A stretch of 64,000 bases of DNA from an uncultured Actinomycetes bacterium (GCA_963733905.1 CAVTEU010000007.1:356556-420555), one strand, 5' to 3'. Shown: positions 25,153 through 34,653, counted from the stretch's first letter. Translations and numbers: made by a program. The notes: generated by a model from the letters alone, not told the origin.

Positions 25153-26800
25153 TCAACCCAACTCGACCAGGGGTGCCTCGACCGGCGCAAGCCCGGCAGC
25201 GGCACGCTGCTTCTCGAGCGAGGCGGCGATGAACCCGGCAAAGAGCGGGTGGGCCTGGTTGGGTCGCGACTTGAACTCGGGGTGGAACTGGCTGGCGATG
25301 AAGAAGGGGTGCCCGGGCAGTTCGATGATCTCCACCAGCGAGTCATCCGGCGCCAGACCGGACAACCGCATACCGGCCTGCTCGAGGTCGGCGCGATAGC
25401 GGTTGTTGACCTCGAACCGGTGGCGGTGGCGCTCGTAGATCAACTCCTTGCCATAGAGCCTTCGGGCGAGCGATCCCTCCTCGAGCGCCGCCGGGTAAAG
25501 CCCGAGCCGCATCGTCCCGCCCAACTCGTCGACCGATTGCTGGCTCTCCATGAGATCGATCACCGGGTGGGCGGTTGTGGGATCGAACTCGGAGCTGTTG
25601 GCGTCAGGCATGTGGAGCTGCGACCGGGCGAACTCGATGACGGCGCACTGGAGCCCGAGGCACAGCCCGAGGAATGGGATGCCCTGCTCGCGGGCAAACC
25701 GGACCGCCTGCACCTTGCCTTCTATCCCCCGCACTCCGAAGCCACCGGGGACGAGGATCCCGTCGAGGTCGTCGAGGGTGGTCATGGCGAGCAGTCCGAC
25801 GGTGTCGTCGGAGGGCACCCAGCGGAGGTCGAGCCTGACGTCGTTGGCGGTAGCGCCGTGCCGCAACGCCTCGACCACGGAGAGGTAGGCGTCGGGGAGA
25901 TCCACGTACTTGCCCACCACGCCGATGGTGACCGTCGTCGCCGGCAACGGCCGAGCGGTGGACCATCCTCTCCCAGTCATCCAGATCCGGGTCGGGAGTT
26001 GACAGCTCGAGGGTGTCGCAGACGACCCGGTCGAGACCACCTCGGTTGAGCACCAACGGGACCTCGTATATGTCGTCGACATCGGTGGCGTTGATGACGG
26101 CGCCGGGGTCGACATCGCAGAAGAGGCTGATCTTGCGGCGGACGCCCTCGTCGATCGGCCGGTCGGAGCGGACGACGATCACGTCGGGCTGGATCCCCCT
26201 GCTCCGCAGTTCGGCGACCGAGTGCTGCGTCGGCTTGGTCTTTAGCTCCTCGGACGATCCGATGAACGGGACCAGCGTGACATGGATGTAGACGGTGTTC
26301 GCCTTGCCCAGGTCCTTGCGCAGCTGACGGATCGCCTCGAGGAAGGGGAGGCTCTCGATGTCACCGACAGTTCCTCCCACCTCGGTGATGACCACATCCA
26401 CTTCGGGGTCGCCGAGCCGGCGGATCCGCGTCTTGATCTCGTTGGTGACGTGGGGGATCACCTGGACGGTGTCCCCCAGGTAGTCGCCACGCCGCTCCTT
26501 CTGGATAACCGTCTGGTACACCGAGCCGGTGGTCACGTTCGAGGTGCGCCGCAGGTTCTCACCGGTGAAACGCTCGTAGTGGCCCAGGTCGAGGTCGGTC
26601 TCGCCGCCGTCATCGGTGACGAACACCTCGCCGTGTTGGAACGGGTTCATCGTGCCCGGGTCGACATTGATGTACGGGTCGAGCTTCTGGTTGACCACCC
26701 GCAGACCGCGCGCCTTGAGCAGTCGGCCGAGCGATGCTGCGGTTATCCCCTTCCCCAGGCTGGAGACCACACCACCGGTCACAAATACGTGCTTGCTCAT
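25153..26800 (-). CDS. pyrG: CTP synthase, indel near 25950
   Basis: [30 protein letters not shown]; GATase GLCLG, RHRHRFE, QFHPE. Confidence 0.96.
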
Positions 26801-26959
26801 CGCTCCTCCTCGTGGCTTGGCTTGCGCAGAGGAGGGGTGGAATCCCGGGAGCGCAGCAGGCGGCTCATCACGGGAGGCCAGAGTAGCACCGGGTGGCCGC
26901 GCCTCCCAGGACCGCACGGCCCGCGGGCCGGGCGAGGCAGACCGGGTTACCGTGGCGCC

Positions 26960-29185
26960 ATGGCGGGAGCATCACCGCAGCGACGCAGGGTACGTCCCGA
27001 CCTGTGGGCAGGGTGGCGACCCAACGGGGTCGGGGAGGTCAAGCCCAACCACTACGGAGAGATCTTCCGAACCGTCTGGGAGAACCGCGACTCGCTCCCC
27101 CGCGCCTGGGCGATCCTGACCAAAGGTGTCTGCGACGGGTGCGCCCTAGGTACCGCCGGCCTCCACGACTGGACGATCGACGGTGTCCACCTGTGCACCG
27201 TCCGGCTCAACCTCCTCCGGCTCAACACGATGGGACCGCTCGACCCGGCCGTCCTCGGAGACGTGACCGCACTTCGGGCGAGGTCGGGGAAGGACCTCCG
27301 TGAGTTGGGACGGCTCGCCCACCCCATGGTGAGGAGACGCGGTGAGCCGGGGTTCCGCCGGATCACCTGGGGCGAGGCGCTCGATCTGGTCGCCAATCGG
27401 CTGAAAAGAACTGATCCGGCAAGATTCGCCCTCTACCTCACGTCGAGGGGGCTGACGAACGAGACCTACTACGTGGCGCAGAAGTTCGTCCGGTTTCTCG
27501 GGTCGCCCAACATCGACAACGCAGCGAGGGTTTGCCATGCCCCCTCCACGATGGCCCTCAAAGGATCGATCGGATTTGGGGCGACCACCGTCTCCTACAA
27601 AGACATTTTCGAATCCGACCTGGTCGTCCTCTTTGGCAGCCACACCGCCAACGCCCAACCGGTGATGATGAAGTACCTCTACCTCGCTCGCAAGCAAGGG
27701 TTGCGGGTGGTGGTGGTCAACCCCTTCCGCGAACCCGCTCTGGAGCGATATTGGGTCCCGTCCAACCCGGAGAGCGCGATCTTCGGTACGCGCATCACCG
27801 ACGAGTTCTTCCCGATCCATACCGGTGGGGACATCGGGTTCGTGTCCGGTGTCCTCAAGGCGATGCTTGCCGAGGGGACCGTCGACCACGGCTTCATCGA
27901 AGCGCGCACCGAGGGATGGACCGAGCTTCGAGCCGCGGTCGAGGCATTCAGGTGGGAAGACCTCGAGGTTGCCTCGGGCTCGACGAGGGCCGAGATGGAG
28001 CGTTTCGCCCACGTCTATGGCGAGGCACGGTCCGCCATCCTCATCTGGTCCATGGGGGTGACCCAGCACGTTTTCGGGTCGGACAACGTGCGCGCCATCG
28101 CCAATCTGGCGCTGGCGCGGGGGAACATCGGCCGGCCGGGTGCCGGGCTGATGCCCATCCGCGGGCACTCCGGCGTCCAGGGCGGTGCCGAGATGGGTGC
28201 CTACGCCACAACGCTCCCCGGCGGGGCCGCCCTCAACGGCGAGTCGGCCGCCCGGCTCTCCGCCGACTACGGGTTCGACGTGCCGGCCACCCCGGGGCTG
28301 AGCGCCGCCGAGATGGCGGAGGCCGCCCACCGCGGCGAGCTCGACATCCTGTACTCGTGCGGTGGAAACTTCCTCGAGGTCCTACCCGACCCGCAACAGG
28401 TGAGGGAGGCGCTGGAGCGGGTCCCGCTGCGTGTCCACCAGGACATCGTCATCACCACACAGATGCTCCTCGATCCGGGTGAGGAGGTGGTTCTCTTGCC
28501 CGCCGCCACCCGCTACGAGCAGCGGGACGGCGGCACCGAGACGACGACAGAGCGGCGGGTGGTGTTCGGGCCCCAGGTGGTGCCGCCGGTGGGAGCGGCG
28601 CGCACCGAATGGGAGATCTTCCTCGACCTCGCCAGACGGGTGGATCCGGGGCGCGCCCATCTCATCGAGTTCGCCTCGGGTGAGGACATCCGCGCCGAGA
28701 TCGCCCGGGTGGTACCCACCTACCAAGGGGTCGAGAGCCTGACGGAACTGGGAGACAACGTGCAGTGGGGTGGGGAGCGCCTCGGCGAGGAGGGGCGGTT
28801 TCCCACTCCAGACGGGAAGGCGCACTTCGCCGTCGTCCAGCCACCACCCCCACCGGAGCCGGGCAGGTTCCGGCTCTCCACGAGGCGGGGCAAGCAGTTC
28901 AACACGATGGTGTTCTCCGAACGGGACCCGCTGACCGGGATGGGGCGCCATGACGTCCTGATGGCGCCCACCGACCTCGAGGGTTTGGGGCTGACCGACG
29001 GCACCCCGGTGACCGTCCGCTCGGCCCACGGCGAGCTCGCCGCAACGGTAAGGAGCGGGAAGATCCGGCCGGGGAATCTCCAGGCCTTTTGGCCCGAGGC
29101 CAACGTGTTGCTGGCACCGGGGGTACGCGACCCCGAGGCGTTGATCCCCGATTACACCGCGTTGGTCGAGGTGATCCCAGCCTGA
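26960..29185 (+). CDS. FdhF/YdeP-family molybdopterin oxidoreductase
   Basis: [41 protein letters not shown]-terminal TRRGKQFN; TACCGT -10 box 6 nt before ATG. Confidence 0.88.
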
Positions 29186-29186
29186 T

Positions 29187-30085
29187 CTAGGAGAGCGGTC
29201 CGAACGAGAAGACCGGCGGCCGGGTGGGGTAGGGAGCGCGGCAGGTGAGCATCGACTGCTCGGGTGAGCTCCGGTATTCGACCCTGACCGCCAACCTATC
29301 GCCATCCGGGCCACGCACCGCAACTTCGGCTGATCCCGGCGACAGGCGCCTCATCGAGATCACCTCCACGTCGTCGATCCCGACCCATCCGAAATCGGTC
29401 GCGCACGAAATGGTCGGTGGCCTGGGCGATGCGATGCATGGTGCTCCGACCTCGGTAGAGGTCGAGTTCGAGCCGGCCAAGTTCGAACGAGTCGATGAGG
29501 CGGGAGGCGTCCTCGGGTTCGACGCGCCCGAAATACGCCCCGTGGGGCAGGACGAGAATGTTGCCGGCGAACCGATCGCCGCCGATGTGCGATGTCTCCC
29601 ATACCCGGTCGGGGAGCACATCGGCCGACGCCCTGTACAACGGCCTTCCCCGGTCGGCACAGCAGATGTCGTGGCGCCCGTGGGTGCACACCAGGTAAAC
29701 GGGACGGGTGCTGGGGGAAACCAACGGGTTCTCCAGCCGCCAGCGCCGACAGGTCGACTTCGAGCACATCCTCGGGGGTGGTCAATGGGAGGCGCACCAA
29801 GACCGGTTCTGTGCCACCACCTCCGCTGTGGGCGAGGAACATGGCCCGCTCATCGGCATTGTCCCGACCCCGCCGGATCAGCAAAGGCCGGACGCCGTGG
29901 ATCGCGCTGCGCCGCTCCAACTCGACCGCCACCTCCAGAGGGAACCGGCTGTCAAGTAGTGCTTCGGGTCCCCACGGCCCGGGCTGCTCGACGACGATCC
30001 ATGCGGTGACGGTCGAAGCCGTGGCGTAAAGCGGCTCTTCCCGGCTCTCTGCTTCCTCCGAGCAACGGAACCGGCTCGCGGTCAA
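29187..30085 (-). CDS. Sucrase-ferredoxin-like protein (thioredoxin-fold 2Fe-2S), indels
   Basis: EQPGPWG N-domain; LVCTHGRHDICCA; VWETSHIGGDRFAGN; HGAYFGRV; YRGRS; rebuilt from three ORF fragments. Confidence 0.85.
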
Positions 30086-31241
30086 CCGCGCACCTCGAGC
30101 AGACCCTCCTTGATCAGCCTGCGGACGAGCACCAAGCGACTCGCCGCATCCAGCTGAATCTCATCGACCCGGATCTCGCCGCGTCCGACCACGTCAATCA
30201 TCACCGGCTCCATCCATGCCGGCATCCGCAGCTCGCGGTCACCGAGCAGCACCGCCAACTCGTCACCTTCGACCTGAAGAGGCACAGCGCGCCGGCCCTC
30301 ACCCCCACCACCGATCGGTCGGTGATCTCGTCGAGGTCGAGCACGCGTCGCATCTGACCGGCGAGCAACGGCTGGCGGGTGGTGAAGAACCGCCGCTGCA
30401 ACCGCCCCCCGATCGCATCCCTGTCCACTTTCGTCACCAGGAGGTCGGCGATCAGGTGGAGACGCTCGTCGACCGTCGCACGCAATGCCTCGCCGATCCT
30501 GGGCGAACCGCAGTGGCAAGCGGATCGTCGAGCTCACCATCAGTCTGCAGCAGCGACACCGCCGCCTCGAGAACATCCCTGGTCCCGATGGAAAGAATCC
30601 CGACGGTGAGGTGGACCGATGCCGAAGCCTGGGTGGCTGCGGCGTGAGGGAAGTTCTTCGGGATGTAGAGGCTGTCGCCCGGTTCGAGCTCGACCTCGAC
30701 CAGCGGAGCTCGGGTCGGCGGCAGGTCATGCCGCTCGTGCACCCACCAGCGCTTGCTGCCGTGACTTTGCAGCACGAAGACGTCGTGGTCGTCCTTGTGG
30801 GCATCGAAGCCCTGCGACCCAGGCGGCGTGATGTAGGCGTTGACCTGTACCGGGTGGCCGAGCGACGCCTCCAAGCTGCGGGCGAAGATCGCCACGGGAG
30901 ACCAGTAGCGGTGCATGCCCTGGAGCACGATCGTCGCCCCCTGGTCGAAGTGGGCGAACACGGCCGAGGCGTCGGCCACCCCGGTTGCCGTCTGAGATCC
31001 GGTTCGTGTGGTCTTGGTGTAACCGCTGGGTGGGAGGACCTTCCCATGGCGGACCAGCCGGAATGCCGGCAGCCGAAGACCACGCCGACGAGATCAGCCG
31101 GTCGACGTCGTCGAGCGAGAGCAGGTCGTCGAAGCCTCCCGGAGACCGGTGCAGGAGGGGACGCTCCCCCCACACTTCGGCGGCAAAGGCGGCTGGATCG
31201 CCGACGCAACGCTCGAGGCCGGCGTCGGGCACCTCTCTCAC
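30082..31241 (-). CDS. JmjC / cupin-4 Fe(II)-2OG oxygenase (YcfD/RoxA/NO66-like), indels
   Basis: NAYITPPGSQGFDAHKDDHDVFVLQSHGSKRW..LEPGDSLYIPKNFPH (HxD..H triad, 2OG Lys); winged-helix-like tail LVRRLIKEGLL. Confidence 0.9.
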
Positions 31242-31280
31242 GAGCTCCGGGTCATCCCGGCGGTGTTTGAGTGCTTGGCT

Positions 31281-31580
31281 CTACCGGTCGGTCCCGTCGA
31301 CACCGTCGCTGTCGGTGCCGTCGACCCCGTCGGCGTCGGTGCCGTCGACTCCGTCCACACCATCGGCATCGGTGCCGTCCACTCCATCCACACCGTCGGC
31401 ATCGGTGCCGTCCACTCCGTCGACCCCATCGGCATCGGTGCCGTCCACTCCGTCGACCCCGTCGGCATCGGTGCCGTCGACCCCGTCGGCCTCGTCGGCA
31501 TCGTCCTTCTGGGACGCCGGAACGCCATTGGTCACGTTGCGGATGTCCTCATCACGCAGCGACGGGTGTTCAGTGCTCAT
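31281..31580 (-). CDS. Asp-rich repeat peptide, putative RiPP-like precursor (7 x DGVDGTD)
   Basis: Strong GAGGAGG RBS; 25-aa unique leader with LRDEDI; DNA repeats differ at synonymous positions; directly upstream of the JmjC gene. Confidence 0.85.
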   Translation of the reverse strand: MSTEHPSLRDEDIRNVTNGVPASQKDDADEADGVDGTDADGVDGVDGTDADGVDGVDGTDADGVDGVDGTDADGVDGVDGTDADGVDGTDSDGVDGTDR

Positions 31581-31613
31581 CTCGCCCTCCTCAATTCGAT
31601 CCTGCGGCTGAGG

Positions 31614-33038
31614 CTAACCCTGCGCGACGAGATCCGGTTGGGCGGGGGGCGGTCCCGATTCGACCAACCGGCACAGCGCATCCACGGCGCGATCGACATC
31701 CTCCAAGTTGTTGTAGAGGGCGAAGCTCAACCTGCAGGTGGCTTGGGGCGCCAGCCCGAGCCATCGGTGGGCGAGGGAGGCGCAGTGACACCCGGCACGG
31801 CTCTCGACACCTTGTTGATCGAGTCCTTCGGCAAGGTCGTATGGGCTCCACCCTTCCACGTTGAAGGCGACGAGCGGGGAACGGTCTCGGTCGGCCGGCG
31901 GGCCGTAGATCGTGATCCCGGCTACCTCCGACAACCTCGTCATGGCATGGGTGGTGAGCAGCCTGGTGTGGGCCCGTACCGCGCTCATCACCTTTTCGAC
32001 CGTCGCCCGGTCCAGGGGCCTCTCGGTGCGGAAGTACGGCTCGGCATCCGGGCCGCAGACGATGTCCACCAAGAGACGAAGCGCCTGCGCCGACACGATC
32101 ACCTCGAGGACTGCGGGCGTGCCCGCCGCCGATCGCCAGGGGAGGTCGGCGTACTCGATGCGATCGTCCCAGACGCCACCGTCGGCGATCATGTCGCCGC
32201 CGTAGAGGAAGGGGCGCGACCCGGCCATGATGTCCTCGCGCCCGTAGAGAACACCCACCCCGAACGGCGCCAGGATCTTGTGGAATGAGAAGGACATCCA
32301 GTCGACATCGAGGGCGGTCACATCGACGGGGCTGCTCGGAACCAGTTGAGCCCCATCCACCAACAGAAGTGACCGGAGACGGCCATCGGGCTGCTCGTAT
32401 CCGCTGGCGTCGGTGATCGCACGGACATCGGCGAGCGGCGGTTTGGTGCCGAGGAAGTTGGAGGCACCGGTGCAACAGACCAACTTGGTCCTCTGGTCGA
32501 CGAGGTGCGACATCTGATCGAGATCCAGCTCCCCCGTGGCGGGATCGAAGTCGACCAGCCGGTACTCGACATGCCTACCCAGCGGTTCGAGGATCTCCTT
32601 CGTCATCCCGTACCAGGGCACGTAGTTGGAGTTGTGCTCCAGCCTGGTGGTGACCACGTTGTCGCCGTCGCGGAACTCGGTGAGCATCGAGTACATCACC
32701 GCGTTGTGCGCCTCGGTCGTGTTGCGGTAGATGGCGATGTTCCGCCTGCTCGGAGCGTTGATCCACTGGGCGATGGTGTCGTATGCGCTCTCGAAGAGGT
32801 CCGTCATCGTCCTCGAGGCCGTCGATGTGCCCCGATGGACGCTCTCGTAGCCGGGCACGAGCTCTGCAAGCAGTTCGACAAGCTGGCGCGGCGACTGTGT
32901 CGTGGCGGCGTTGTTGGTGACTATCCGTCCGCGCTCGACGAAGTCGAAGTAGCTCCTGACCCGGTCCACGTCCAACCGTGGCCCCTCAGCGGCTCGTTGC
33001 TCGGGTCGGTGCCGGCGTCCGGGTCCGAAATGAACCAT
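31614..33038 (-). CDS. Class V aminotransferase, SufS-type cysteine desulfurase-like
   Basis: NNAATTQ, VHRG, NTTEA, LEHNSN, VDGAQ, SFHK (PLP Lys), AGTP, RAGCHCA. Confidence 0.88.
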   Translation of the reverse strand: MVHFGPGRRHRPEQRAAEGPRLDVDRVRSYFDFVERGRIVTNNAATTQSPRQLVELLAELVPGYESVHRGTSTASRTMTDLFESAYDTIAQWINAPSRRNIAIYRNTTEAHNAVMYSMLTEFRDGDNVVTTRLEHNSNYVPWYGMTKEILEPLGRHVEYRLVDFDPATGELDLDQMSHLVDQRTKLVCCTGASNFLGTKPPLADVRAITDASGYEQPDGRLRSLLLVDGAQLVPSSPVDVTALDVDWMSFSFHKILAPFGVGVLYGREDIMAGSRPFLYGGDMIADGGVWDDRIEYADLPWRSAAGTPAVLEVIVSAQALRLLVDIVCGPDAEPYFRTERPLDRATVEKVMSAVRAHTRLLTTHAMTRLSEVAGITIYGPPADRDRSPLVAFNVEGWSPYDLAEGLDQQGVESRAGCHCASLAHRWLGLAPQATCRLSFALYNNLEDVDRAVDALCRLVESGPPPAQPDLVAQG

Positions 33039-33048
33039 GTCTCCCCGC

Positions 33049-34653
33049 TCAGTTGATCTTGCTGGTTCGCCCAGCCCACTCCTTGTCCCGCAGAACGTAC
33101 TTCTGGATCTTCCCCGTCGACGTCTTGGGCAATGCGGTGAGGAACTCGACCTGATCCGGCGCCTTGAACTTGGCGATCCGCTGGCGGACGTGTCCGATTA
33201 GCTCGTCTTCGGTCACCTCAGCGCCCGACTTGAGCACGACGAAGGCCTTGGGCCGCTCCCCCCAGTAGTCGTCGGGCACCGAGACCACCGCCACCTCGAG
33301 GACGGCGGGGTGGCTGACCAATGCCTGCTCGACCTCGATGGTCGAGATGTTCTCCCCACCCGAGACGATGATGTCCTTGGCTCGATCCCGCAGCTCGATG
33401 TAGCCGTCGGGGTGCCATACGCCGAGGTCGCCGGAGTGGAACCAACCACCGCGGAAGGCGTGCTCGGTCGCATCCGGGTCGTCGAAATAGCCCTTCATGA
33501 CATTGTTGCCCCGCATCACGACTTCTCCGATGGTGGACGCGTCTCGGGGGACGTCGGCCATCTCCTCATCAACCACCCTTATCGGGTCGGCCGAGACCAT
33601 GGCCAACCCCTGCCGGGCCATGAGCCGGGCGCGCTCCGCCGGCTCGAGGTGCGCCCAACCGGGCTGCTCCTGGCACACGGTGTACGGGCCGTAGGTCTCG
33701 GTGAGCCCGTAGACGTGGACCACCTCGGCGCCCAGCGCCGTCATCTGGGCGATCAGGGTTGGGCTGGGCGGGGCGCCCGCGGTTGTCACCACCAGCGGTG
33801 ACACCGAGGGGCCGAGCCTCAGCGGCGTTGGCCAGCGAGATCAGGACGGTTGGTGCTGCGTTGAGATGGGTGACGCCTTCGCTTTCGAGGAGCCGCCACA
33901 CCTCAGACGGGTCGACCGCCCGCAGACACACATGGGTGCCACCGATGGCGGTTACCCCCCAGGTGGTACACCAGCCGTTGCAGTGGAACATGGGGAGGGT
34001 CCACAGGTAGACCGACTCGGACGAATGCCGGGAGTGGATCACCTCGGCCATGGCGTTGAGATGCGCCCCCCGGTGCGTGTACATGACACCCTTGGGTCGG
34101 CCGGTCGTGCCGCTGGTGTAGTTGATCGAGATGGTGCGGTCCTCGTCGTCCACGGTCCAGGCCATCGGCTCGTCGTCGCCCCTGGCCATGAAGTCGGCGA
34201 ATCCGGTCGCCGGGAGTGACGACCCGCGGCCGGTGTCGTCCACCGTCACGATCTCCTCGACTCCACCCAGGTCGTGCATCGACCGGCTCGATCAACGGGG
34301 TGAGTTCGGAGTCCACAACGAGCAGCCTGGCGCCCGAGTGACCGAGGATGTATCGGATCTCCTCTGATGAGAGCCGGGTGTTGATCGCCACCAGCACCGC
34401 CTCTGCCAGAGGCACGCCGAAATGCGCAACCAGGAGCTCGGGGATGTTCGGGCAGAGATAGGCAACGCGGTCACCCTGCTCGATCCCCGATGCTTTGAGG
34501 GCATGTGCCAGGCGCGTGGCCGATTGCGCCATCTCGCGATAGCTGAGTCGCCGGTCGCCATGGACTGATGGCGGTCTTGTCCGGGAAGACCTCACTGCTC
34601 CGACCCAGGAATGAGAGCGGGGTCAGCTGCGTGAGATGGACGGGCTCGGCCAC
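33049..34653 (-). CDS. Acyl-CoA synthetase (AMP-binding), indels
   Basis: LTPLSFL, YTSGTTGRPKG, PMFHCNGW, YGLTET, GWFHSGD, DRAKDIIVSGGEN, LPKTSTGKI. Confidence 0.92.

Follow-up and report, generated by a model that had tools for sequence, protein, structure and literature searches.

The window analysed here is a stretch of 64,000 nucleotides from the genome of an uncultured Actinomycetes bacterium (GCA_963733905.1, CAVTEU010000007.1:356556-420555), and it carries three co-directional genes on the minus strand, which encode a small Asp-rich repeat peptide, a JmjC-type Fe(II)/2-oxoglutarate (2OG) oxygenase of the ribosomal oxygenase (ROX) type and a PF06999 protein with a thioredoxin-like ferredoxin core (Table 1). 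Comparison with related loci showed that peptide, JmjC and PF06999 genes form a real, conserved and tightly coupled gene unit. The peptide and JmjC genes are separated by 39 nt, with the latter starting at a GTG codon (31241), while the JmjC and PF06999 genes overlap by a 4-nt TTGA (30082-30085); the co-directional layout, the gap and the overlap given in a preliminary description of this DNA, made by a model from the sequence alone, were thus borne out. The 99-aa open reading frame (ORF) of the same description also proved to be intact, with the leader, the core of seven DGVDGTD copies and the strong ribosome-binding site that had been named for it. The peptide begins with M-S-T-E-H-P-S-L-R-D-E-D-I-R-N-V and ends with the seven DGVDGTD copies, and the tandem repeats encoding its core were found by Tandem Repeats Finder to lie in frame, with periods of 33 nt (5.6 copies) and 24 nt (2.9 copies).

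Table 1. Features of the locus, in window coordinates.
Feature	Position	Strand	Evidence or remark
Precursor-like peptide gene	31281..31580	-	Intact ORF, 99 aa + stop; ~25-aa leader, then Asp-rich repeat core
Leader recognition motif L8-R-D-E-D-I-R-N15	31536..31559	-	Family consensus L-x-D-E-D-I-x-T; predicted role
Repeat core, 7 x DGVDGTD	31287..31503	-	Tandem Repeats Finder and translation
Ribosome-binding site GAGGAGG	31586..31592	-	5 nt upstream of the peptide ATG, by sequence
ROX-type JmjC Fe(II)/2-oxoglutarate oxygenase gene	30082..31241	-	PF08007; four single-base indels here
JmjC catalytic core H-K-D ... K (G-S-K-R-W) ... H (F-P-H-A-A)	30644..30799	-	Alignment with NO66
JmjC C-terminal winged-helix / RRE-like domain (RRE, RiPP recognition element)	30085..30320	-	Structure model; predicted leader-binding site
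PF06999 sucrase/ferredoxin-like (thioredoxin-like ferredoxin) gene	29187..30085	-	Two single-base insertions here
Putative cluster-binding motif C-X8-C-X23-H-X-G-G-D	29575..29688	-	Conserved residues; compared with the Apd1/Aim32 motif
SufS-like class-V aminotransferase gene	31614..33038	-	PF00266 at 8.5e-82; 33 nt upstream of the peptide gene

Conservation of the gene unit and its broken frames

A profile built from 22 JmjC homologues recovered 583 relatives among 598 candidate stretches, which were taken from contigs of one genome per species, and the best 80, with JmjC identities of 40-94%, were compared as loci. An Asp-rich repeat ORF ends just upstream of the JmjC gene in all 79 assessable loci (L039 starts at a contig end), and its stop codon always lies just before the JmjC start. 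All 78 assessable loci have the leader motif L-x-D-E-D-I-x-T, L031 and L039 being cut by contig ends; it was detected by pattern in 74, by a relaxed rule in L040 and by eye in L021, L047 and L058, whose peptides are themselves frameshifted in long-read metagenome-assembled genomes (MAGs). A PF06999 homologue follows directly downstream in 77 of 79 assessable loci, with L046 and L073 lacking it and L069 cut by a contig end. The similar trios that the preliminary description mentioned for other actinobacteria do therefore exist, with the unit found again in many actinobacteria of soil and one of the loci (L067) belonging to a cultured strain, Halosaccharopolyspora lacisalsi DSM 45975, and adjacency of the peptide gene is universal in the assessable loci, rather than lacking from most of the JmjC clade.

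Beyond JmjC and PF06999, no family occurs in more than 10 of the 80 loci, and no conserved protease, exporter or regulator was found among the 694 neighbour ORFs that were clustered with a crude ORF caller, which recovered the PF06999 gene itself in only 44 loci. The preliminary description had noted the absence of a protease and an exporter from the window; in the compared loci, neither is conserved. Pfam searches on representatives of ten of the next-largest clusters (5-10 of the 80 loci each) gave no family for three, and among the families of the rest were a cupin_2 protein, a GT4 glycosyltransferase, a PDZ protein and an FtsH-like protease; these recurring neighbours look like local synteny.

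The JmjC and PF06999 genes had been described with no word of interruption; in this assembly, the two are broken by six single-base indels. Insertions near 31083, 30517 and 30496, together with a deletion near 30279, scatter the JmjC gene across three frames, and the PF06999 gene likewise runs through three, with insertions near 29709 and 29392. As a result, Pfam matched only the middle pieces of the two genes (PF08007 at 5.9e-24 for 30452-30979 and PF06999 at 1.7e-21 for 29296-29769), and none of the other six translated pieces, the peptide included, matched a Pfam family.

All six indels are private to this assembly when it is compared with two congeners (96% and 93% DNA identity), and the same comparison gave 90 indel rows over the whole window, 81 of them single-base (73 insertions and 8 deletions). 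These indels are spread over all 64 kb and hit many genes, including pyrG (25936) and an acyl-CoA synthetase gene (33802, 34281 and 34567). The JmjC gene is in one frame in five of five congeners, which have other, non-shared frameshifts elsewhere, and contigs from three public soil metagenome runs (95-99% alike) contradict every one of the six. It could be argued that JmjC and PF06999 are true pseudogenes and that the module is decaying in this genome, as the six frame-breaking indels fall within 2.05 kb and none lies in the 3.3 kb of flanks within L001. Such decay is very unlikely, given that private single-base indels, nearly all of them insertions, occur throughout the window and even in pyrG, that insertions of this kind are typical of uncorrected long reads, and that the source genome, a MAG of 20 contigs, was scored only 81% complete despite so few contigs. 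Because the indels are window-wide and because relatives and independent soil contigs lack all six, the frameshifts are sequencing or assembly errors and not gene decay, in a pattern typical of an unpolished long-read MAG. ORF-based readings of the window therefore need frame correction, and the intact orthologues of congener L006 (a 92-aa peptide, a 383-aa JmjC enzyme and a 296-aa PF06999 protein) were used for the protein work.

The peptide, the JmjC enzyme and the PF06999 protein

The peptide family was described from 72 unique peptides, with 51 peptides in the motif alignment. The peptides are 52-126 aa long (median 79), the leader motif begins within residues 4-22 and leads into a linker of 6-17 residues, and each repeat region holds 9-31 Asp. 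Repeat regions consist of 35.9% Asp, 18.2% Thr, 14.4% Gly, 9.4% Ser, 9.2% Ala and 1.2% Glu; Cys occurs in one peptide, and aromatic residues are nearly absent. The thirty-fold excess of Asp over Glu argues against plain negative charge as the selected property and points to Asp-specific chemistry or geometry. Every peptide in the motif alignment has D10, and L8, I13 and T15 each reach a conservation of 90% or more. Within the genus, the orthologues of five congeners are 82-99 aa long with a varying number of repeats, and the codons of S-L-R-D-E-D-I show synonymous changes only, while flanking residues vary as well.

No Pfam or NCBIfam model matches the peptide, and a sequence search for homologues, hampered by low complexity, returned only three weak matches, one called 'hypothetical protein' and two unnamed; relatives were retrieved by gene context instead. 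The exact peptide sequences that were looked up are absent from a collection of 15 billion proteins. The peptide genes seem to be mostly uncalled by gene finders, and standard genome mining therefore misses the module. The label BatC, which the preliminary description gave for such peptides, found no support in the family models, in the Atlas neighbours (called 'hypothetical protein') or in the protein collection.

This near invisibility to databases, together with the fact that all frames are open across the repeat, could also mean that the small ORF is no gene, and that a GC-rich tandem repeat serves as a non-coding or regulatory element before JmjC. Such an element is hardly credible here, however, since a strong ribosome-binding site and an ATG precede the ORF, the leader motif is kept at the amino-acid level in 78 loci whose DNA is only distantly related, changes within the motif are synonymous, repeat periods are multiples of three, and the stop codon keeps its place before the JmjC start. 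We infer that the gene is translated.

The JmjC enzyme belongs to PF08007, with 84.5 bits for the window piece 30452-30979 and 74.7 bits for the intact orthologue against a cut-off of 22. The AlphaFold model of the orthologue (predicted local distance difference test, pLDDT, 83.7) was compared with solved structures by Foldseek, and its best match was NO66 (4e4h), over the full length, at E 3.9e-25 and a query-normalised template modelling score (TMq) of 0.69, followed by MINA53 and YcfD; NO66 alignments cover ~445 columns with TMq 0.64-0.69, and identity to the ROX matches is 17-24%. The match and the model give a three-domain build, composed of the JmjC domain, a helical dimerisation domain and a C-terminal winged helix. 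Residues H146, D148, K161 and H197 are invariant in the 22 JmjC sequences and are present in the window's frame-1 piece. In the profile alignment, H-K-D, G-S-K-R-W and F-P-H-A-A correspond to A-P-H-Y-D-D, G-R-K-L-W and F-I-H-Q-A of NO66, whose residues we take to be the metal and 2OG ligands. The alignments establish an intact set of predicted ROX-type catalytic residues, in agreement with the HxD..H triad, 2OG-binding Lys and winged-helix-like C-terminus of the preliminary description. In the C-terminal domain, strands were modelled within 308-338 and helices at 339-351 and 363-375, and two blocks, D-R-E-L-x-x-P and V-L-x-R-R-L-x-x-E-G-L-L-E, are invariant in the 22 sequences. PF08007 and PF06999 are each represented by just one gene in the source genome.

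Modelling of the JmjC enzyme with the peptide and one Fe ion gave complex scores of 0.71, 0.71 and 0.70, compared with 0.00 for the best control, and the mark that this complex passed is reached by 58 of 80 solved complexes and by 2 of 110 mismatched pairs. At least 19% of contacts are common to the runs, and the partner pLDDT is at least 37. On the JmjC side, the confident interface consists of residues 333-338, 340-341 and 361-376, and on the peptide side, of residues 5-10 and 12-18; the modelled leader lies against the D-R-E-L-x-x-P strand and the V-L-x-R-R-L-x-x-E-G-L-L-E helix, and the two sides of the interface are the invariant blocks of their respective alignments. The leader motif and the C-terminal domain are thus co-conserved, and the leader is predicted by modelling with controls to dock on this domain. 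We know of no solved ROX structure with a peptide on its C-terminal domain, and memory of a solved complex is therefore unlikely to explain the result.

The predicted docking resembles that of an RRE, the recognition element for peptides that are made on the ribosome and modified after translation (RiPPs), where the leader likewise contributes a strand, which packs alongside the final beta-strand and one helix of a small domain of winged-helix-like fold. The canonical RRE has three strands followed by three helices, whereas strands, helix, strand, helix and strand follow each other in the present model. According to the available text of a 2025 survey (PMC12710340), RRE-like folds are fused to PF08007, and the closest bacterial JmjC homologues occur in RiPP-like contexts; the Asp-rich peptide family is not described in that text.

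Natural fusions of peptide and JmjC were also sought, and the five candidates (P0134, P0150, P0225, P0160 and P0268) turned out to be N-terminal extensions or frameshifted calls, none of them convincing. One of these, P0134 (493 aa), has a 98-residue N-terminal extension with the leader-like stretches L-A-D-D-D-Q-I-T-T and L-S-D-E-E-I-T-T and no acidic repeats; a wrong gene call, a frameshift or a variant that docks onto itself could account for it.

The PF06999 protein matches its family at 75-78 bits (cut-off 34.9), and the model of the intact 296-aa orthologue reached a pLDDT of 94.7. Its central ~100 residues match the thioredoxin-like [2Fe-2S] ferredoxins 1m2d and 5abr in Foldseek, with a target-normalised score (TMt) of 0.68-0.70 and a probability of 1.00, with E only ~2e-3; nothing in the PDB matched its N- and C-terminal domains in the same search. 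Invariant positions are C8, C131, C139, C140 and H164; C279 occurs in 67 of 69 sequences, and so does D168. The translated pieces from the window itself carry C-X8-C and H-I-G-G-D. In Apd1/Aim32 proteins, the cluster is held by two Cys and two His in the motif C-X8-C...H-X-G-G-H, according to the text available from PMC11138216. PF06999 membership, the thioredoxin-like ferredoxin core, C-X8-C and the first His of H-X-G-G are shared with this family, so that the preliminary assignment to Apd1/Aim32-type Fe-S proteins stands in family, fold and C-X8-C; it fails at the second His, which is replaced here by a near-invariant Asp (H-X-G-G-D). The protein further differs from Apd1/Aim32 in the additional C8 and C279, in two extra domains, in its bacterial origin and in being encoded with a JmjC enzyme. 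Judged from conserved residues, it is probably a [2Fe-2S] thioredoxin-like ferredoxin with unusual ligands of the Cys2-His-Asp type.

Five near-complete genomes with a peptide-JmjC pair lacking an adjacent PF06999 gene were searched for a distant copy; three have no homologue anywhere, and in the remaining two a copy lies ~20 kb and ~375 kb away, respectively. The PF06999 protein is therefore not essential. The peptide-JmjC pair is the core of the module and the PF06999 protein a frequent but dispensable accessory, which may play a supporting redox role or perform a follow-up step.

At E <= 1e-10, a JmjC homologue is found in 77 of 401 sampled Actinomycetota genomes, or 73 of 397 without the unpublished genomes G086, G126, G302 and G377. 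The JmjC profile matched 12443 cluster representatives at E <= 0.001 and 2387 (50%-identity clusters) at E <= 1e-30. Twenty weaker or more distant JmjC matches were fetched for comparison of their context. At 220 bits or more, an acidic or Gly-rich repeat ORF lies directly upstream in 14 of 14 and PF06999 downstream in 9 of 14; below 190 bits, both counts are zero of six. Eight of these loci (L101-L103, L106, L108 and L110-L112) carry a second peptide flavour with the Gly/Ala/Asp/His repeats E-G-P-A-D-G-G-x-N-P-x-G-H-D-G-G-A-D-G, for which the leader in distant loci is M-A-L-D-D-D-M/I-T-T. As a separate observation, L104, L105 and L107 (from G183, G336 and G324) have the Glu-containing repeats P-T-E-D-D-E-N-L-D-A-P-G-E-H-S-x-D-T-G-D-E and a leader I-S-N-D-D-I-S, with no adjacent PF06999 gene and, in two of the three genomes, no PF06999 homologue at all.

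Nearer to the source genome, the locus is whole in five of five congeners, and a DNA search of 35 other genomes of the same family or order gave matches no longer than ~70 nt; no JmjC homologue was found in the six same-order genomes of the phylum sample. The nearest JmjC relatives beyond the genus are labelled Acidimicrobiia. Because the distribution is patchy, it suggests horizontal transfer.

Proposed chemistry and comparison with known systems

Taken together, the module is best read as a self-contained peptide-modification system in which the JmjC enzyme, guided by the leader, hydroxylates its peptide, most likely at Asp C-beta, and we hold this reading with moderate confidence. The small gene would be translated into a peptide of 52-126 aa with the N-terminal leader and an Asp-rich repeat tail. 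The leader would then be added as a beta-strand onto the C-terminal winged-helix / RRE-like domain of JmjC, as the model with its controls predicts, and the linker of 6-17 residues could let the repeats reach the Fe(II)/2OG active site, where many of them may be hydroxylated. A non-essential PF06999 helper might keep the JmjC iron reduced or carry out a follow-up step. As no conserved protease or exporter accompanies the genes, the modified peptide is probably retained inside the cell as an acidic microprotein; intracellular metal binding by this product is speculative. The metal-chelating or storage role and the iron-handling task of the ferredoxin that the preliminary description proposed found no support. 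Asp as the target, proposed already in the preliminary description, fits the Asp and Glu contents of the repeat regions and the precedent of SmaO (PMC12186529, in its available text).

Several points weigh against leader-guided Asp hydroxylation. The complex model positions the leader only and leaves the core unplaced (partner pLDDT 37), and the run used its own alignments and a riding Fe ion, in which it differs from the calibration of the tool. ROX enzymes act on ribosomal proteins, with Arg or His as targets and not Asp, and the Thr (18%), Gly (14%) and Ser (9%) of the repeats leave room for another target residue. L110-L112 have repeats but no recognisable leader motif; their JmjC match stops before the C-terminal domain, which may reflect co-variation of leader and docking domain. 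The lack of PF06999 from three of the five genomes searched belongs here as well. Upstream of 73 peptide starts (250 nt each), best-mismatch counts for an IdeR operator equalled those of shuffled controls in a scan with a 19-nt consensus, and sites with six or fewer mismatches occurred in only two of the 73 regions, both ~220 nt from the start; nothing therefore ties the module to iron regulation. As for expression, three short contigs (63-151 nt, 90-99% alike) from one rhizosphere RNA library fall on JmjC and the peptide and may be a weak hint of transcription, with relatives or library DNA as a possible source.

The peptide might instead serve the JmjC enzyme as a regulator, decoy or chaperone, for example as an acidic mimic of RNA or the ribosome, with a ribosomal protein as the true substrate. 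The full-length ROX fold, the membership in PF08007, the lack of a second PF08007 gene in the source genome and a modelled leader whose core is not in the active site are all compatible with that role. We nevertheless regard it as unlikely, because a leader followed by a core of variable copy number is the layout of enzyme substrates, and because the repeats vary freely while Asp is kept and Glu avoided, for which a charge mimic would have no need. The coupling of peptide and JmjC in every assessable locus points the same way, and the patchy occurrence of the clade among the sampled Actinomycetota is unlike that of a core ribosome-modifying enzyme. Other chemistry on the peptide as a substrate, either hydroxylation of Thr, Ser, Val or Gly or oxidation of hydroxy-Asp by the PF06999 protein to aminomalonate or a keto acid, is judged improbable to a similar degree. 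In its favour, 42% of the residues in the repeat regions are Thr, Gly or Ser, two extra domains of the PF06999 protein have no PDB match and its C8 and C279 are conserved, and a two-enzyme RiPP cascade from Asp through hydroxy-Asp to aminomalonate is reported in the available text of PMC12186529. Against this, Asp is the sole residue repeated in every peptide type, and cores free of Gly (L038 and L064) or poor in Thr (L073, of the ADGG type) exist; the published cascade uses an HD-domain protein for its second step, and no such protein is conserved near the present genes, and some carrier genomes do without PF06999 altogether.

Hydroxylation of Asp under guidance of the leader thus remains the preferred reading. 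In its boldest form, the product would be a ribosomal poly-(beta-hydroxy-aspartate) microprotein with 9-31 modified Asp, acting as an intracellular chelator in the manner of siderophores or gamma-carboxyglutamate (Gla) proteins, with JmjC as the class-defining, leader-guided enzyme and the H-X-G-G-D protein as a novel type of Fe-S partner, either re-reducing JmjC or oxidising hydroxy-Asp further; this fuller picture is offered as a tentative possibility, more doubtful than not.

The JmjC enzyme has PF08007, the H-x-D...H and Lys residues and the three-domain build in common with NO66, MINA53, E. coli YcfD/RoxA and the Rhodothermus YcfD-like protein. These known ROX enzymes act on ribosomal proteins, in which they hydroxylate His or Arg, and no peptide gene is dedicated to them, whereas the present enzyme has a leader-bearing, Asp-rich peptide gene directly upstream; gene context and the complex model point to this adjacent peptide, and not to a ribosomal protein, as its likely partner. 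JmjC-type Fe/2OG enzymes acting on ribosomal precursor peptides have been described, namely BipG, an ornithine hydroxylase of biphenomycin, and CzlI, a Phe hydroxylase of curacozole (PMC12707348 and PMC11575548, in their available text). Both are tailoring enzymes in large clusters with class-defining enzymes, proteases and transporters, and CzlI is YxbC-like rather than of the ROX type. In contrast, no modifying enzyme other than JmjC is conserved in the present module, nor is a protease or an exporter, and its peptide has a long Asp repeat as the core.

SmaO was reported to beta-hydroxylate Asp in a DGDG core, to need a following Gly and to reject Glu (PMC12186529, in its available text). 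Fe/2OG hydroxylation of Asp beside Gly in a ribosomal peptide, with a second iron protein encoded alongside, makes the SmaO/SmaX pair similar to the proposed system; SmaO is compared by its reaction, as its family is not stated in the main text of PMC12186529. SmaX is an HD-domain protein, whereas the partner here is of PF06999, and no HD-domain family appeared in the Pfam scans of the ten neighbour-cluster representatives. As far as that text describes it, the SmaO/SmaX precursor also differs in a GG leader cut by a peptidase-containing ABC transporter (PCAT) and in the modification of only two Asp. FIH, AspH and CinX, the last named as a RiPP Asp hydroxylase in the available text of PMC11575548, are likewise Fe/2OG beta-hydroxylases of Asp or Asn in proteins or peptides, and FIH, a JmjC enzyme, was among the weaker structural matches of the JmjC model (2cgo). 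They belong to other subfamilies, modify single sites and have no repeat substrate with its own leader.

With regard to RiPP systems in general, an encoded leader-core precursor stands beside the modifying enzyme (79/79 loci for the peptide and 78/78 for the leader), and no conserved leader peptidase or exporter emerged from the clustered neighbour ORFs. No description of the peptide-JmjC-PF06999 trio was found in the literature searched, which lay outside subscription journals and supplements. To our knowledge, JmjC enzymes of the ROX type are known only as modifiers of ribosomal proteins. What is known, then, is leader-guided Fe/2OG hydroxylation of peptides; what would be new is a ROX relative with its own acidic repeat substrate and a PF06999 Fe-S partner. 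If the boldest form of the reading is true, this would be the first ribosomal-oxygenase relative with a dedicated peptide substrate and a new RiPP-like class across Actinomycetota. The ROX family would be seen differently if a large clade of bacterial members encoded a leader-tagged substrate of its own, and the pair, with just two genes, would be a simple system in which to study how the C-terminal domain of ROX enzymes recognises a substrate. Should the product be a poly-hydroxy-Asp peptide, it would represent a new kind of ribosomal metal-binding molecule, and the H-X-G-G-D protein would add a new ligand set to the Apd1/Aim32 family.

Upstream signals and neighbouring genes

GGAGG-type sites stand ahead of most of the 74 listed peptide starts in related loci. 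A promoter of its own had been suggested for the peptide gene from a TAGCCT -10 box; the hexamer is indeed present (31611-31616), but its TAG part is the codon at which the upstream gene terminates. No promoter-like site was found in 28900-33300 by a scan for the sigma-70 consensus, which did not cover actinobacterial promoter types. Simple 8-mer counting upstream of the peptide starts gave no shared motif. A second repeat locus in the source genome (G000:C3:27406-27474) has no Asp-rich frame and was rejected as a chance DNA match.

On the opposite strand, an ORF for an FdhF-like large molybdopterin oxidoreductase (26282-29185, +) converges on the end of the module and is also found in congener L006, with no evident functional link. 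Finally, the SufS-like gene upstream of the peptide gene scores 297 bits for the SufS subfamily, below the cut-off of 475, and its similarity to encapsulin cargo cysteine desulfurases likewise falls short of the cut-off. It was considered as a part of the module and rejected, as a homologue is adjacent in only 2 of the 80 wider loci, and it is probably a genus-specific neighbour outside the module.

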